From NCBI GenBank assembly GCA_015485585.1, contig WFTI01000005.1, forward strand, positions 1-51,898: a stretch of 51,898 bases of DNA, written 5' to 3'. The stretch is from Candidatus Dojkabacteria bacterium. GTDB taxonomy: Bacteria; Patescibacteriota; Dojkabacteria; GCA-002793355. Positions 182 to 51,238 of the stretch are shown piece after piece; position 1 is the first letter of the stretch; each line of letters opens with the position of its first letter. The position numbers and the translations under genes are program-made. A model generated the notes under the pieces. The model was not told the DNA's origin and made no database searches. It saw only the letters and a program-made list of their open reading frames with translations.

Positions 182-187
182 TATAAT
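182..187 (+). promoter_or_regulatory. -10 box TATAAT, 6 nt upstream of ATG 194 (leaderless-type)
   Basis: ttTATAATcctcccATG read directly. Confidence 0.55.
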
Positions 188-193
188 CCTCCC

Positions 194-2263
194 ATGGGAG
201 CGAAGAAAACGAAAAGAACAAAGAAAACAGATGTCGACATACTAGACCGCGAAGTAATGCAGGTTACCCTAAAAGAGGCACTCTGGGCTTATTGGAGGTA
301 TCTTGTACTTGCTTTTAAAGCAAACTCCAAGTTATTTACCCTCTTTGTGATGTTTCTTGAGCTTTATTCAGCTCTAAATCCGATACTAAATGCATTTTTA
401 ATAGGAAAAGTAATCAACATTATCGTATATTCACCGACCAATATAACCTTGTTAGGGGTCTATATTAGTTTACTTGCGATCTTGTACCTTTTTTCAGGGA
501 TCTTGTTTGGTAGGGGAGGCATCGCAGATATTTTTATTGATAAATATTACAGAAACCTCGAGGGTTACTTTGATTTTCTTTATCTAGAAACTTTACGGAA
601 AACCCCTATTGCGGTGCTAGAGCACCCTCTTTTTATAACAATGAAACAACGAAGTAGCGGGTATTTTGACAATAATAACATGCAGATTTTTTCTGAGTTC
701 AGATTTATATTTTCAAGTATTTCGAGATTCTTCTCTGCAGCTACCTTTTTTATCGGTTTAGGGTACTGGTACTTTGTTCCGATCGCCCTGGTTTTAGGTT
801 TGATCTTTGGCTTTGGATGGATGCAAAACTTAAAGCTTCGTAACAGATCGGTTGACCGCACCCTTGAGGCCCAAAGGGTACAGGATATGGCTATAGAATT
901 AGTAGACAACTTATCAGTATTTACTATCTCACGTCTTTTCGGATTTGACGTTTTTGTTCTTAAAAGATATGCGCCGTTTAGATACCTGCGTTGGGATCTC
1001 AATCATTATATAGACCGTATTCTACGAATAAAAACATACTTACCTTCTAAACTCCCACTTCTTGTTGGAGAGTTGGCAATGGGCTTAAAACTTTTATATG
1101 ATACATTTTTGCGTAAGATCAAAGTGGGTGACTTTACCTTTTTAATGGGACAGCTACAGAACATAATTCTGCCTCTTTCTGGCACCATGGCTAGCATCTC
1201 ATGGCTTTATTCCGAAGCTTATTTTCTCTATGTTTACCTATTGCTTATTGAAGGAAAAATAAGCAAGAAACTCTACCGGCGTATTTTAAGACAAGCCCAA
1301 AAAGAGAAGATAGCATCAAAACTCTATCGTGTTTCAGTGTCTTCATTAAAAGGAAAAGATATTCAGATTAAAGACCTGTGGTTTAGGTATCCTGAAGCAA
1401 AAGAATATGTCCTGAGGGGAATTAATATGCAGATCCCCTACGGCACCAATGTAGCTATAGTAGGAGACAACGGAGCCGGGAAAACGACCCTTCTTAAACT
1501 GATCTTGGGAGCATATCCGTCATATAAAGGAAGCCTGCGGGTAGGCGAACACGAGGTTTATGAGTATGAACCCGATTCTTACCTGCTTAATTTCAGCATA
1601 TTACCGCAAGAGTTCCCTGTTTTACCTTTTTTAACTGTTGCTCAGTTTGTCCAGATAGATGAGGTTACTAAAAACGAGAAGTTAATTTTAGAACCTTCCA
1701 AATTTTTCTTTGAGAATTTCTTTGGAAATAAACGCGAGTTTTACGAATTTGTCGATCAGGTAATCAAAGGAGAGATTAAAGATATCTATCGTGATTATCT
1801 GTTACCACGCATCTACCAAGAAGATATAAACCAAGAGAAGGTCAAAAAAGTGCTAAAGGAGGTTGCTTTATATGATGATATAAAGCAATTTTCTGCAGGA
1901 ATAGATACGTTTTTGCATCCTACCTTTAAAAATGGAGTGCGTCCTTCCACAGGGCAGTGGCAGAAGTTAAATATTGCACGTATCCTTTATGCTCCGCGTG
2001 ATATCTTGATCTTAGATGAACCTACCAGCGCGATTGATCCTCATACAGCCTTTAAGATAGTTGATAAACTTTTTGAGAGATTCTCTGATCGCACCGTGAT
2101 TATTGTATCGCACCGATACTCCACGATAGTGAACGCAGACTACATTTATGTGTTACGTAACGGAAAGATAATAGAGCACGGAACCTTAAAAGATCTTCTT
2201 CGCAGAGAGGGATATTTCGCAAAAGCATACAGGGAGGAAAAAGAAAGGTTAGAGAGAAGATGA
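194..2263 (+). CDS. ABC transporter, fused permease/ATP-binding protein (exporter type)
   Basis: 689-aa ORF with a hydrophobic N-terminal half. Motifs: Walker A GDNGAGKTT, Q-loop LPQEF, signature STGQWQKLNIAR, Walker B ILILDEPTSAID, H-loop VSHR. Confidence 0.85.
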   Translation: MGAKKTKRTKKTDVDILDREVMQVTLKEALWAYWRYLVLAFKANSKLFTLFVMFLELYSALNPILNAFLIGKVINIIVYSPTNITLLGVYISLLAILYLFSGILFGRGGIADIFIDKYYRNLEGYFDFLYLETLRKTPIAVLEHPLFITMKQRSSGYFDNNNMQIFSEFRFIFSSISRFFSAATFFIGLGYWYFVPIALVLGLIFGFGWMQNLKLRNRSVDRTLEAQRVQDMAIELVDNLSVFTISRLFGFDVFVLKRYAPFRYLRWDLNHYIDRILRIKTYLPSKLPLLVGELAMGLKLLYDTFLRKIKVGDFTFLMGQLQNIILPLSGTMASISWLYSEAYFLYVYLLLIEGKISKKLYRRILRQAQKEKIASKLYRVSVSSLKGKDIQIKDLWFRYPEAKEYVLRGINMQIPYGTNVAIVGDNGAGKTTLLKLILGAYPSYKGSLRVGEHEVYEYEPDSYLLNFSILPQEFPVLPFLTVAQFVQIDEVTKNEKLILEPSKFFFENFFGNKREFYEFVDQVIKGEIKDIYRDYLLPRIYQEDINQEKVKKVLKEVALYDDIKQFSAGIDTFLHPTFKNGVRPSTGQWQKLNIARILYAPRDILILDEPTSAIDPHTAFKIVDKLFERFSDRTVIIVSHRYSTIVNADYIYVLRNGKIIEHGTLKDLLRREGYFAKAYREEKERLERR

Positions 2264-2265
2264 GA

Positions 2266-2526
2266 CTAGAAATTTTTTAGATAACGCGCATAGTTTACTA
2301 AGACTTTTGAGGGATCTAAGGCTTTTACGGAGAGCACAATATTAGATGGAAGTTCTGTTTTATTAAGCAAGAAAAAATCAAAATCAATTCATCGACGGTG
2401 ACCGTATTGTAGGGCCAAAGCCGTACCACCTGCAAGTACTAGTTTATATTTTTTGGTTAAATCTTCTAACTTTGGTAAAACAGCCTTTTGCCGTTCGTTT
2501 AAAATCTCAGTAAATATTTTTATCAT
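2266..2526 (-). pseudogene. Remnant of an AbiEii/DUF1814-like nucleotidyltransferase (toxin-type) gene, with an in-frame TGA and a 3' truncation
   Basis: Minus-strand reading gives MIKIFTEILNERQKAVLPKLEDLTKKYKLVLAGGTALALQYGHRR*IDFDFFLLNK... The family motif GGTAL..GHR.S.D.DFF is cut by TGA (2389..2391) at the usual Ser position. The frame then closes about 43 codons later at the end of the ABC gene, far short of a full-length enzyme. Confidence 0.55.
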
Positions 2527-49330: not shown

Positions 49331-49333
49331 CAG

Positions 49334-49339
49334 TATAAT
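49334..49339 (+). promoter_or_regulatory. -10 box TATAAT, 6 nt upstream of ATG 49346 (leaderless-type)
   Basis: cagTATAATctttatATG. Confidence 0.55.
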
Positions 49340-49345
49340 CTTTAT

Positions 49346-51238
49346 ATGTACCTTTCTGAACTCTCAGAATATTTTAAACAGCTTGAATCAATAAGCTCTA
49401 GGTTAACCCTACGCGATATCCTTATTGAGCTTATAGAGAAGTTAGATGAAAAAGAAGCTCAAGTGGTTTCATATTTTTTACAAGGACGTCTTGTCCCTCC
49501 GTTTATTAATCTTGAGTTTAATATAGCTGAGAAGATGATCAACAGATATATTACAGAGCGGTTTGATATTACCTCCTCTAAAGAGCTTGCAGACCTGCGT
49601 CTGAAATATAAAGATCTACCTGGCGTTTATGAGTTTTTGGCAACCCAAAAGAGACCTAACGCTTCTTTACAAAACATGACTATTCTTGACACATATAACG
49701 CCTTAACCGAGATAGCGTTGACCGAAGGGGCAGGTTCAATTACAAAGAAACTTTCACTTCTTGATTCGCTCCTTCGTAAGATCGACCCCACATCAGGAAA
49801 ATACATTTTACGTCTTATACAAGGAAGATTACGTCTAGGAGTAAGTGTACGTTCAATGCTTGATGCCTTAGCCTATAAAGAAAGCAGACAGAATGGTACT
49901 GACATAAAGGTTATTAAGGCGGTTTTTGATAAGGCATACGGACTTACCAGTGATATTGGATACATCACATCAGTGTATAAAGCGAAAGGTTTTGAAGCCA
50001 TAAAGCAGGTTAAATTTAGGGCAGGAATTCCTATAGCACCCCAGCTTGCTGAGCGTGAAAAGACATTAAAGAAGTGTTTAGAGCGTATTCCTTTTCCGTT
50101 AGTTGACCCTAAAATGGATGGATTAAGGGGGCAGATTCATATATTTGACAGGTATTATTTTGAACAACATACATTTGAAGATAGGGTTTGGGCAAAGATC
50201 TACACCCACTTACTCAACACAAGAGAAAACACGTTACTTTCATCTTCTACTCGCTTTTTTGTAAAGATCTTCTCACGTAATCTTGAAGATCTTACTCCTA
50301 TGTTTCCTGAGATTACCGAATGGGTTAATAAGTATGGAGAGATATTCTTCAGAAAAATAGAAAAAGACAAACCTTTGGTAGCAGTATTAGATTCAGAACT
50401 GATCGGGTATAACGAGAACACAGGAGAGTTCTTTGGTTTCCAGGTTACCATGACAAGGCGCAGAAAATACGGCATCAAAGAAGCAATGCAAGATGTTCCG
50501 ATCCGAGCTTTTGTGTTTGATATGATGGTGTATGGTGATGAGCTTATTGATCATCCTTTAAAAGAAAGGCGAAAGATCGCTGAAGAAGTGTTTGCTGATC
50601 TTCCTTCTGAATCTACAGTAATACTAAATACAGCCCATAAGTTCTATGAGAACAAAAAAGCTCATCAGAAGATTTTAGAAGAGGTTCAAGCCATCTTTTA
50701 TGATTACGTTTCAAGAGGAGTTGAAGGAATAATGATCAAAGATCCTGACGCACCTTATGAGCCCGGTGTAAGAAAGTTTAGTTGGATCAAGTTCAAAAGA
50801 GCCATGAAGAAAGAGTTGGCAGATACCTTAGATGTAGTGGTACTTGGTTATTACTATGGAAAAGGGCGTCTAGCCACTCTCGGAATTGGAGGTTTGCTCG
50901 CAGGGGTATATGATCAAGACAACGACACCTTTGTAACTATCGCGAAGATAGGAACAGGTTTCTCTGATAATGATTGGTTACAGATAAAAAAGATACTTGA
51001 TGATTTAGCTGTTGAGAAAAAGCCAGCAAGGGTAGAGGTAGCAAAAGAGCTTGTTCCTGATGTGTGGGTTTATCCGAAGCTTGTGATTGAGGTATCTGCT
51101 GATGAGATTACAAAAAGTCCAATACATACAGCGAAGGTTGCGTTGCGATTTCCTCGATTTGAGCGTATCCGTGAAGATAAAACTCCTGATGAAGCAACCA
51201 CTCTAAAAGAGGTATATGAGCTAGCAAACCTTACTTAG
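49346..51238 (+). CDS. lig: ATP-dependent DNA ligase (archaeal/eukaryotic Lig1-like three-domain type)
   Basis: 630 aa. N-terminal DNA-binding domain, motif I PKMDGLRGQIH (KxDGxR), EGIMIK (motif IV), WIKFK (motif V), OB-fold C-terminus with LRFPRFERIREDK. Confidence 0.85.
   Translation: MYLSELSEYFKQLESISSRLTLRDILIELIEKLDEKEAQVVSYFLQGRLVPPFINLEFNIAEKMINRYITERFDITSSKELADLRLKYKDLPGVYEFLATQKRPNASLQNMTILDTYNALTEIALTEGAGSITKKLSLLDSLLRKIDPTSGKYILRLIQGRLRLGVSVRSMLDALAYKESRQNGTDIKVIKAVFDKAYGLTSDIGYITSVYKAKGFEAIKQVKFRAGIPIAPQLAEREKTLKKCLERIPFPLVDPKMDGLRGQIHIFDRYYFEQHTFEDRVWAKIYTHLLNTRENTLLSSSTRFFVKIFSRNLEDLTPMFPEITEWVNKYGEIFFRKIEKDKPLVAVLDSELIGYNENTGEFFGFQVTMTRRRKYGIKEAMQDVPIRAFVFDMMVYGDELIDHPLKERRKIAEEVFADLPSESTVILNTAHKFYENKKAHQKILEEVQAIFYDYVSRGVEGIMIKDPDAPYEPGVRKFSWIKFKRAMKKELADTLDVVVLGYYYGKGRLATLGIGGLLAGVYDQDNDTFVTIAKIGTGFSDNDWLQIKKILDDLAVEKKPARVEVAKELVPDVWVYPKLVIEVSADEITKSPIHTAKVALRFPRFERIREDKTPDEATTLKEVYELANLT

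Follow-up and report, generated by a model that had tools for sequence, protein, structure and literature searches.

Extended -10 boxes 5-7 nucleotides ahead of start codons suggest mostly leaderless mRNAs in a putative Candidate Phyla Radiation bacterium

How is a gene expressed when its promoter seems to end where its coding sequence begins? The question is raised by a stretch of 51,898 nucleotides (nt) of contig WFTI01000005.1, hereafter the window, which has 41% G+C and holds about 33 protein genes, two tRNA genes and one 23S rRNA gene. In this window, hexamers that resemble the bacterial -10 box stand only a few nt ahead of ATG codons. An earlier, sequence-only reading of the window had listed 20 such pairs of hexamer and ATG and had taken them as a sign of mostly leaderless mRNAs, that is, of transcripts that begin at the start codon itself. 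The sample analysed here covers 69.8 kb of the same organism, since the window was joined to two public contigs found via exact protein matches to it and overlapping it with 99.7-99.9% identity: L001, which extends 9.8 kb upstream, and L002, which extends 8.1 kb downstream. Our analysis indicates that the mRNAs of the box-bearing genes are very probably leaderless and start at the ATG, a reading in which both the transcription starts and the recruitment of ribosomes are deduced from the layout of the DNA.

Distance between the box and the start codon

All 20 pairs of the sequence-only reading were found exactly where it had placed them, with a spacing of 5-7 nt (Table 1). The hexamers are TATAAT (nine sites), TACAAT (five), TATACT (two) and CATAAT, TATAAA, TAAAAT and TACACT (one each), the weakest of them being those at 43294 (TACACT), 42566 (TAAAAT, without an upstream TG) and 20852 (TATAAA). 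A 21st site had been missed and consists of TGATAAATT followed by 6 nt and the ATG at 37224.

The spacing was assessed in a start-agnostic test that made no use of gene calls: for each TAnAAT on both strands, we recorded the ATGs at 0-30 nt that opened an open reading frame (ORF) of at least 100 codons. The 157 TAnAAT sites of the window gave eight ORF-opening ATGs at 5 nt and seven at 6 nt, and 0-2 at the other distances. In the 69.8 kb the counts were 12, 10 and 1 at 5, 6 and 7 nt, and 23 of the 223 TAnAAT sites had their ATG at 5-6 nt, versus about 0.3 per other distance bin. The enrichment that was to be looked for in a comparison of TAnAAT-ATG distances with shuffled controls is therefore present in this sample, as a peak at 5-6 nt. 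GTG and TTG codons showed no spacing peak at 0-30 nt from TAnAAT in the same test, and ATG is the start codon at all 29 sites that were aligned for the motif. A second, gene-centred test counted a start as positive when a hexamer with at least five of six matches, including A2 and T6, lay 5-7 nt ahead of it. This was the case for 26 of 46 gene starts in the 69.8 kb (19 of 33 in the window), versus 32 of 1861 other ATGs (1.7%; odds ratio 74, Fisher p = 2e-30). Shuffling the upstream 40-mers 2000 times gave 1.9 +/- 1.4 positives, with a maximum of 8. The positive gene starts had the hexamer at 5 nt (12), 6 nt (11) or 7 nt (3), with 0-2 at distances elsewhere in the histogram.

Might such pairs arise by chance in A+T-rich intergenic DNA, their number being inflated by fitting start codons to the hexamers? 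The base composition of the genome, with its A+T-rich intergenic regions, and the fact that six starts had been moved by the earlier reading could both be invoked in favor of this, but we give it next to no probability. Indeed, the shuffles together with the start-agnostic histogram, which peaks at 5-6 nt only, already refute it. Moreover, no adjustment is needed at 14 of the 20 sites, where no other start codon lies between the in-frame upstream stop and the ATG, and the layout recurs in independent genomes but is absent from equally A+T-rich loci of Dojkabacteria, Falkowbacteria and Rickettsia.

The six starts that had been corrected (2849, 20822, 20864, 28475, 43307 and 8515) are all called in public annotations, where they stand beside longer versions. 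For two of them the longer version can be traced to the motif itself: at 2864 and 20837, an A followed by TGnTAnAAT, 5 nt and ATG generates, five codons upstream, a second ATG in the same frame, and public annotations hold both lengths, namely 105 or 100 amino acids (aa) for 2864/2849 and 328 or 323 aa for 20837/20822. The long versions are likely a systematic annotation artefact, the true start being probably the downstream ATG. In the case of ileS, the ATG lies at an N-terminus common to 28 homologues, 10-22 residues ahead of a conserved FW..N.IFEKS block.

These start codons bear on an explanation in which the promoters are real while the mRNAs would not function as leaderless ones, either because transcription starts several bases away or because initiation takes place at a downstream codon. 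Some scatter of a few bases in transcription starts is possible and the gene callers disagree at the six starts named above, yet we consider this explanation improbable. The ATG at 5-6 nt opens a long ORF in every case and is mostly, in the 14 cases given above, the first start after a stop; the peak spans 2 nt and is restricted to ATG, neither of which would be required by a leadered layout. The start of ileS agrees with the conserved N-terminus, the paralogues that begin at 37224 and 43307 have N-termini that are similar by eye, and no downstream Shine-Dalgarno (SD) sequence or other internal ribosome-recruiting signal was found.

Promoter identity of the motif and the predicted transcripts

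When the 29 sites were anchored on the hexamer, T1 was present in 28, A2 and A4 in all 29, and T6 in 27. One base upstream of the hexamer, T was found in 17 and G in 18 of the 29 sites, at positions that had not been used in selecting them. No -35 element was conserved in the aligned upstream regions of these sites, and a scan for classical -35/-10 pairs of hexamers found 35, versus 53.8 in shuffles, so that they are not enriched. In extended -10 promoters, the lack of a -35 is made up for by contacts between the TG and region 3.0 of sigma-70. Judged by its conservation, the motif is an extended -10 promoter of the sigma-70 type, with the predicted consensus TGnTAnAAT.

This consensus has 26 exact occurrences in the 69.8 kb, 20 of them intergenic, and 11 of the intergenic ones stand 5-6 nt from a coding ATG. 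Others precede the 16S rRNA gene (by 101 and 227 nt), tRNA genes (by 47 and 80 nt) and an M23 peptidase gene (by 47 nt). The box of rplJ lies 167 nt upstream of the gene, and the mature 5' end of the 5S rRNA comes 6 nt after a TGCTATAAT box, which provides the sole, indirect calibration for the predicted transcription starts. The boxes ahead of the 23S gene, the tRNA genes and the L10 leader, which the sequence-only reading had used as an internal control, do carry the motif, and none of them has an ATG at 5-7 nt. Since the motif is found ahead of 16S, 23S, 5S, tRNAs and the L10 leader, it is a promoter rather than a signal for ribosome binding. Moreover, the extended -10 box appears to be the sole promoter type in the sample, and is apparently placed flush with start codons.

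The same evidence speaks to another proposal, according to which the TAnAAT-like motif would be a non-SD translation signal on polycistronic mRNA, of the group B type known from Bacteroidetes, with no promoter involved. The resemblance is real: SD pairing is not used, an A/T-rich motif lies a few bases ahead of the starts at a distance that recalls the spacing of a ribosome-binding site (RBS), many short co-directional spacers carry it, and terminators are not enriched. However, the motif bears the sigma-70 signature, with an invariant A2, a near-invariant T1 and T6 and the TG one base upstream, and it precedes the untranslated 16S, 23S, 5S and tRNAs. It is also missing at five of the six overlapping or abutting internal genes, with gaps of -25 to 10 nt after their neighbour (the exception is 55733), which are those that would need an RBS most. 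A group B motif, which cannot be a promoter, is expected at first and internal genes alike (PMC6028130). A translation signal of this kind is, in our view, highly unlikely here.

If the 29 boxes are promoters, are their transcripts equipped for SD pairing? The 16S gene lies at L001:3069-4633 and its 3' end, GGAAUUACCUCCUUA, keeps the CCUCC core. The 16S tail, which had been singled out for inspection, thus retains the anti-SD ACCUCCUUA, and SD pairing would be unused rather than impossible. We computed the duplex energy of ACCUCCUUA with the 20 nt upstream of starts, random 20-mers being the baseline; these energies were used in place of a start-agnostic count of four-base SD cores, which was too noisy to discriminate genomes. 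The means were -0.66 kcal/mol for the 29 leaderless-type genes, -1.36 for the 17 other genes and -2.34 for random 20-mers. In consequence, the claim that the box-bearing genes have no SD sequence holds, and pairing there is even weaker than at random level. Only two of the 29, at 9903 and 36377, reach -4.4 kcal/mol or below, owing to runs of G that overlap the -10 box or immediately precede it and would lie outside the predicted transcript. Among the other genes 3 of 17 do so, a small sample, versus 20% of random windows, and no SD was found ahead of rplJ, rplL, rho and mreB. The leadered and internal genes being also devoid of SD sequences, this absence does not separate the gene classes. Taken together, SD pairing appears to be unused in the 70-kb sample in spite of the anti-SD.

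These features can be assembled into a model. The hexamers would belong, as -10 elements, to extended -10 promoters of the housekeeping, sigma-70 type, which have no -35. With the peak at 5-6 nt, the A of the ATG is the 6th-7th base after the hexamer, in the canonical start window, and RNA polymerase would start at this A or within a base or two of it. The mRNAs would then have neither a 5' leader nor an SD sequence, and the ribosome with the initiator tRNA would presumably bind the 5'-terminal AUG directly, as in mycobacteria, Deinococcus and many archaea. Leaderless expression would be the default mode, including for genes that follow a co-directional neighbour by 15-35 nt and for the endonuclease genes within the 23S insertions. 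The remaining genes would be either tightly coupled to a neighbour, with gaps of -25 to 10 nt, or leadered (rho, rplJ, trx, the M23 peptidase gene and mreB) and transcribed from the same kind of promoter located further upstream. Indeed, mreB sits behind a leader, and three further boxless genes follow tRNAs or the 5S gene. By our count, the 69.8 kb contain 29 leaderless-type units versus about seven leadered protein-first units. In the 70 kb, the predicted leaderless share would thus be about 60% for all genes and would rise to about 80% when protein-first transcription units are counted, which agrees with the description of these mRNAs as mostly leaderless.

The leaderless reading is well supported by the ATG-only peak at 5-6 nt, by the TG that was not selected for, by the boxes before stable RNAs and by the relatives described below. 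Several points nevertheless weigh against it. Among the hexamers, three or four are weak (TACACT, TAAATT, TAAAAT without TG, and TATAAA), the promoter calls rest on 8-9 bases with no -35 conservation, and all transcription starts are predictions from sequence. The genome was seen over about 70 kb only, and the absence of SD sequences is not specific to the box-bearing genes. In addition, co-directional spacers of 8-35 nt harbour 10 of the 29 sites; the tightest spacer of the window, in front of the ligase gene, has 15 nt, the stop codon being followed there by three bases, TATAAT, six bases and the ATG. Terminator-like hairpins between co-directional genes are not enriched either (12 versus 13.1 expected). 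With such short spacers and no enrichment of terminators, read-through polycistronic RNAs would coexist with the leaderless ones.

Relatives and known leaderless systems

The best named matches of the IleRS of the window have 45-49% identity and belong to CPR3, Dojkabacteria, Shapirobacteria, Woesebacteria and a 'Patescibacteria group', while the closest matches beyond its own species reach 50-56%. From these matches and from the insertion-bearing, unlinked rRNA genes, we infer that the organism belongs in or near the Candidate Phyla Radiation (CPR). Contigs of relatives were reached via their IleRS homologues, with about 20 kb per locus, and a separate calibration panel was made of phylogenetically scattered loci with an IleRS at most 42% identical.

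In four relatives with an IleRS 50-53% identical (L087, L088, L089 and L093), 25-40% of called starts have the box at 5-7 nt, versus 2-6% of all ATGs, and the sharp peak at 5-6 nt is present as well. The orthologous ligase, ftsK, AAA_14 and ileS genes of relatives keep the box whereas the bases between box and ATG differ; for the ligase, the -10 box lies at 6 nt in L088 and at 5 nt in L089. A Woesebacteria locus (L092) has the box at 25% of called starts and a Dojkabacteria locus (L091) at 0%. The peak was also found in the CPR3 contig L090 and, in the scattered panel, at a Moraniibacteria (L077) and a Saccharibacteria (L038) locus; no peak was found at the Falkowbacteria, Peribacteria, Rickettsia and Clostridia loci. 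A Mycobacterium locus served as positive control and, with the looser TAnnnT, gave 4 matches versus a background of 0.5. The predicted layout would therefore be common to this clade and patchy across the CPR, which we state provisionally, since each lineage is represented by about 20 kb per locus.

Leaderless expression itself is well known from mycobacteria, Deinococcus and archaea. The predicted architecture matches group C of GeneMarkS-2, to which Mycobacterium tuberculosis, Corynebacterium, Streptomyces, Deinococcus deserti and the Thermus group belong, with an unusually high leaderless share. In group C, first genes have a Pribnow box 6-8 nt ahead of their start; the group is frequent in Actinobacteria (90%) and in Deinococcus-Thermus (97%), and its predicted leaderless share is 25-50%, with 167 of 262 mapped genes being leaderless in D. 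deserti (PMC6028130). The fixed short distance between Pribnow box and ATG, the lack of SD at leaderless genes and the anti-SD retained in the 16S rRNA are common to both. On the other hand, high-GC actinobacteria have a minimal TANNNT where a full extended -10 box, TGnTAnAAT, is seen here, and the leaderless share of protein-first units would be about 80%, versus the 25-50% predicted for group C. SD sequences are not enriched here at internal and leadered genes, for which group C genomes are described as relying on an RBS, and the lineage is CPR/Patescibacteria-like.

With archaeal group D (Haloferax volcanii, Halobacterium salinarum, Sulfolobus solfataricus), in which leaderless genes head 60-80% of operons (PMC6028130), the organism would have in common a leaderless majority and a minor role of SD. 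However, archaea use an archaeal polymerase and a TATA/BRE box about 26 nt upstream, whereas a bacterial -10 box at 5-7 nt is seen here; a TATA-like box at about 26 nt was not found, the aligned upstream regions of the 29 sites carrying no conserved signal from -35 to -4, counted from the hexamer. Bacterial extended -10 (TGn) promoters likewise have the TG one base upstream and little or no -35 conservation, but they are known as a promoter class and not as a mode of expression, whereas here they would be flush with the start codons. Regarding the CPR, the study of Tsurumaki (2022) reported anti-SD loss in a subgroup of Parcubacteria and did not analyse leaders (PMC9297842). We found no account of leaderless genes in CPR, Patescibacteria or Saccharibacteria in the full texts searched, which leave most subscription journals uncovered, so that an earlier description is possible.

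A much broader statement is tempting, namely that leaderless initiation is the default and nearly exclusive mode in this clade, that nearly each uncoupled gene has its own -35-less promoter flush with the ATG, that SD pairing is unused with the anti-SD kept, and that this mode is patchy across the CPR with their reduced ribosomes. We propose it tentatively, and it may well prove too broad. If true, the genome would be organised gene by gene and not in SD-linked operons, and if the 70 kb are also representative, no bacterium reported so far would have a larger leaderless fraction, which would come near that of haloarchaea. The leaderless-dominated lineages would gain a deep-branching group whose genomes are small and whose ribosomes are reduced. 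This would matter to the question of whether such initiation is an ancestral trait or arose repeatedly, and to the understanding of translation initiation in those CPR lineages that rely on SD pairing or have lost it. In practice, modelling this layout in annotation would fix N-termini in many CPR genomes, and TGnTATAAT, 5-6 nt and ATG might provide a design rule for expression cassettes in genetically tractable Patescibacteria. The significance is bounded by the fact that the mode is already known, by the computational nature of the evidence and by a sample of about 70 kb.

Mapped features and neighbouring genes

Table 1. Box-bearing start sites, control promoters, rRNA features and boxless or leadered genes. 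Positions are those of the window unless L001 or L002 is given.
Feature	Positions	Strand	Gene or remark
TATAAT + 6 nt + ATG	182..196	+	ABC-transporter ATPase gene (194-2263)
TGcTACAAT + 5 nt + ATG (2849)	2847..2863	-	100-aa ORF
TGgCATAAT + 6 nt + ATG (4436)	4434..4451	-	520-aa ORF
TATAAT + 6 nt + ATG	7174..7188	+	LAGLIDADG_1 endonuclease ORF (7186-7620), in 818-nt 23S insertion
TACAAT + 5 nt + ATG	8504..8517	+	LAGLIDADG_2 endonuclease ORF (8515-9150), in 1107-nt 23S insertion
TATAAT + 5 nt + ATG	9892..9905	+	ClpB-like AAA+ gene (9903-12488), 57 nt past the 23S 3' end
TGtTATACT + 7 nt + ATG	15650..15668	+	AMP/thymidine-phosphorylase-family gene, 19-nt spacer after rho
TGcTACAAT + 5 nt + ATG (20822)	20820..20836	-	IF-2B-family (ribose-1,5-bisphosphate isomerase-like) gene; half of a divergent pair
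TGgTATAAA + 6 nt + ATG (20864)	20849..20866	+	810-aa ORF; partner half of the back-to-back pair
TGaTATAAT + 5 nt + ATG	24229..24245	+	103-aa ORF
TATACT + 5 nt + ATG	24571..24584	+	TraG/VirD4-like ATPase gene, 27-nt spacer
TATAAT + 5 nt + ATG (28475)	28473..28486	-	CCA-adding enzyme gene
TGtTATAAT + 6 nt + ATG	30957..30974	+	ileS
TGaTACAAT + 6 nt + ATG (36342)	36340..36357	-	452-aa ORF (34984-36342), which we take to be MiaB-like by our own reading, not by Pfam; divergent pair, 34-nt spacer
TATAAT + 5 nt + ATG	36366..36379	+	271-aa ORF
TGaTAAATT + 6 nt + ATG	37209..37226	+	1349-aa Peptidase_S74-domain protein; weak hexamer, 4/6
TATAAT + 5 nt + ATG	41295..41308	+	rtcB, 32-nt spacer
TAAAAT + 6 nt + ATG	42566..42580	+	FAD/NAD-binding oxidoreductase gene, 21-nt spacer; weak, no TG
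TACACT + 7 nt + ATG	43294..43309	+	1130-aa Peptidase_S74 protein; weakest hexamer, TTGACA 17 nt upstream
TGaTACAAT + 6 nt + ATG	47978..47995	+	AAA_14/DUF4143 ATPase gene
TATAAT + 6 nt + ATG	49334..49348	+	ATP-dependent DNA ligase gene, 15-nt spacer
Control: extended -10 boxes TGTTAGAAT (4454-4462) and TGATATAAT (4493-4501)	4454..4501	+	239 and 200 nt ahead of 23S
Control: GGTATAAT	23298..23305	+	40 nt ahead of tRNA-Ser (23346-23433)
Control: TGGTATAAT	30788..30796	+	80 nt ahead of tRNA-Arg (30877-30952)
Control, leadered unit: TGCTATAAT (46712-46720)	46712..46887	+	structured L10 leader, then rplJ (46888) and rplL (47486)
23S rRNA gene	4702..9845	+	two insertions
23S insertion 1	~6923-7740		818 nt, model position about 1950; LAGLIDADG_1 ORF 7186-7620
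23S insertion 2	~8318-9424		1107 nt, model position about 2504; LAGLIDADG_2 ORF 8515-9150
Coupled boxless genes	L001:7502 (window -2305), 12496, 17177, 29247, 34324		
Promoter of rho	14239-14249		leadered
Promoter of trx (thioredoxin)	33914-33922		leadered
Promoter of M23 peptidase gene at 18626	18570-18578		leadered
Candidate box TATAAT, gene at 28592	28551-28556		
AAA_14/DUF4143 copies	L001:5041-6213, L001:6315-7526; window 47993-49330; L002:12685-13968, L002:14877-16379		

Two of the 20 listed genes, at 7186 and 8515, are homing-endonuclease ORFs in insertions of the 23S gene, and each has its own pair of -10 box and ATG. A first Rfam pass had set the 23S 3' end at 8457, which was a misalignment across the 1107-nt insertion, and targeted searches moved it to 9845. 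The rRNA genes are unlinked: about 10.1 kb containing protein and tRNA genes separate the 16S gene from the 23S gene downstream of it, and the 5S gene is found at L002:12545-12660 on the minus strand, about 42 kb downstream of the 23S gene and just beyond the end of the window. The rRNA regions (4001-8000 and L001:4300-4633) have 52-60% G+C versus about 39-41% elsewhere in the window. G+C-rich rRNA is often seen in thermophiles, and a link to the present organism is a guess; that the sample labels REYS20-1 and DOMB18-1 on related contigs refer to hydrothermal studies is likewise only our guess.

Upstream of rho lies an RNA candidate of about 190 nt, within 13989-14222, which is G+C-rich and has a predicted fold of -92.8 kcal/mol (z = -7.4). 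Its promoter is a canonical TTGACA-17 nt-TATAAT at 13989-14017. A search of Rfam gave no credible match to it, the only hit being SNORA17 with E = 0.03, under the gathering score. Its GGAGGAAGCA stretch resembles signal recognition particle RNA.

Among the leadered genes, TGGTATAAT and TGGCATAAT promoters are followed by an ATG at 5 and 7 nt that opens a mini-ORF (18584-18598 and 33930-33941). These mini-ORFs have 4 or 3 codons and end 27 or 26 nt before the start of the M23 peptidase or thioredoxin gene. They may be leaderless mini-ORFs, but the idea of a conserved device is not supported, similar ones in relatives being scattered and not at orthologous positions. An ATG-TAA start-stop is also seen at 47477-47482, with TAAAAT 7 nt ahead of it and the start of rplL (47486) 3 nt behind it; rplL has no -10 box at leaderless distance.

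The thymidine/AMP-phosphorylase-family gene (15666-17177) lies near the IF-2B-family gene (19851-20822), and no RuBisCO gene is present in the window. We take this pair to resemble the nucleotide-salvage (AMP) pathway of some CPR and archaea. The two giant paralogues, 37224-41273 (1349 aa) and 43307-46699 (1130 aa), have similar N-terminal membrane anchors and C-terminal Peptidase_S74 domains of the tail-fibre chaperone-like kind, and L093 encodes an 1882-aa relative. Finally, the 70 kb contain five paralogous AAA_14/DUF4143 ATPase genes, every one of which has a -10 box of its own at a distance of 5-6 nt from the ATG, and copies are also found in the relatives L087-L090.

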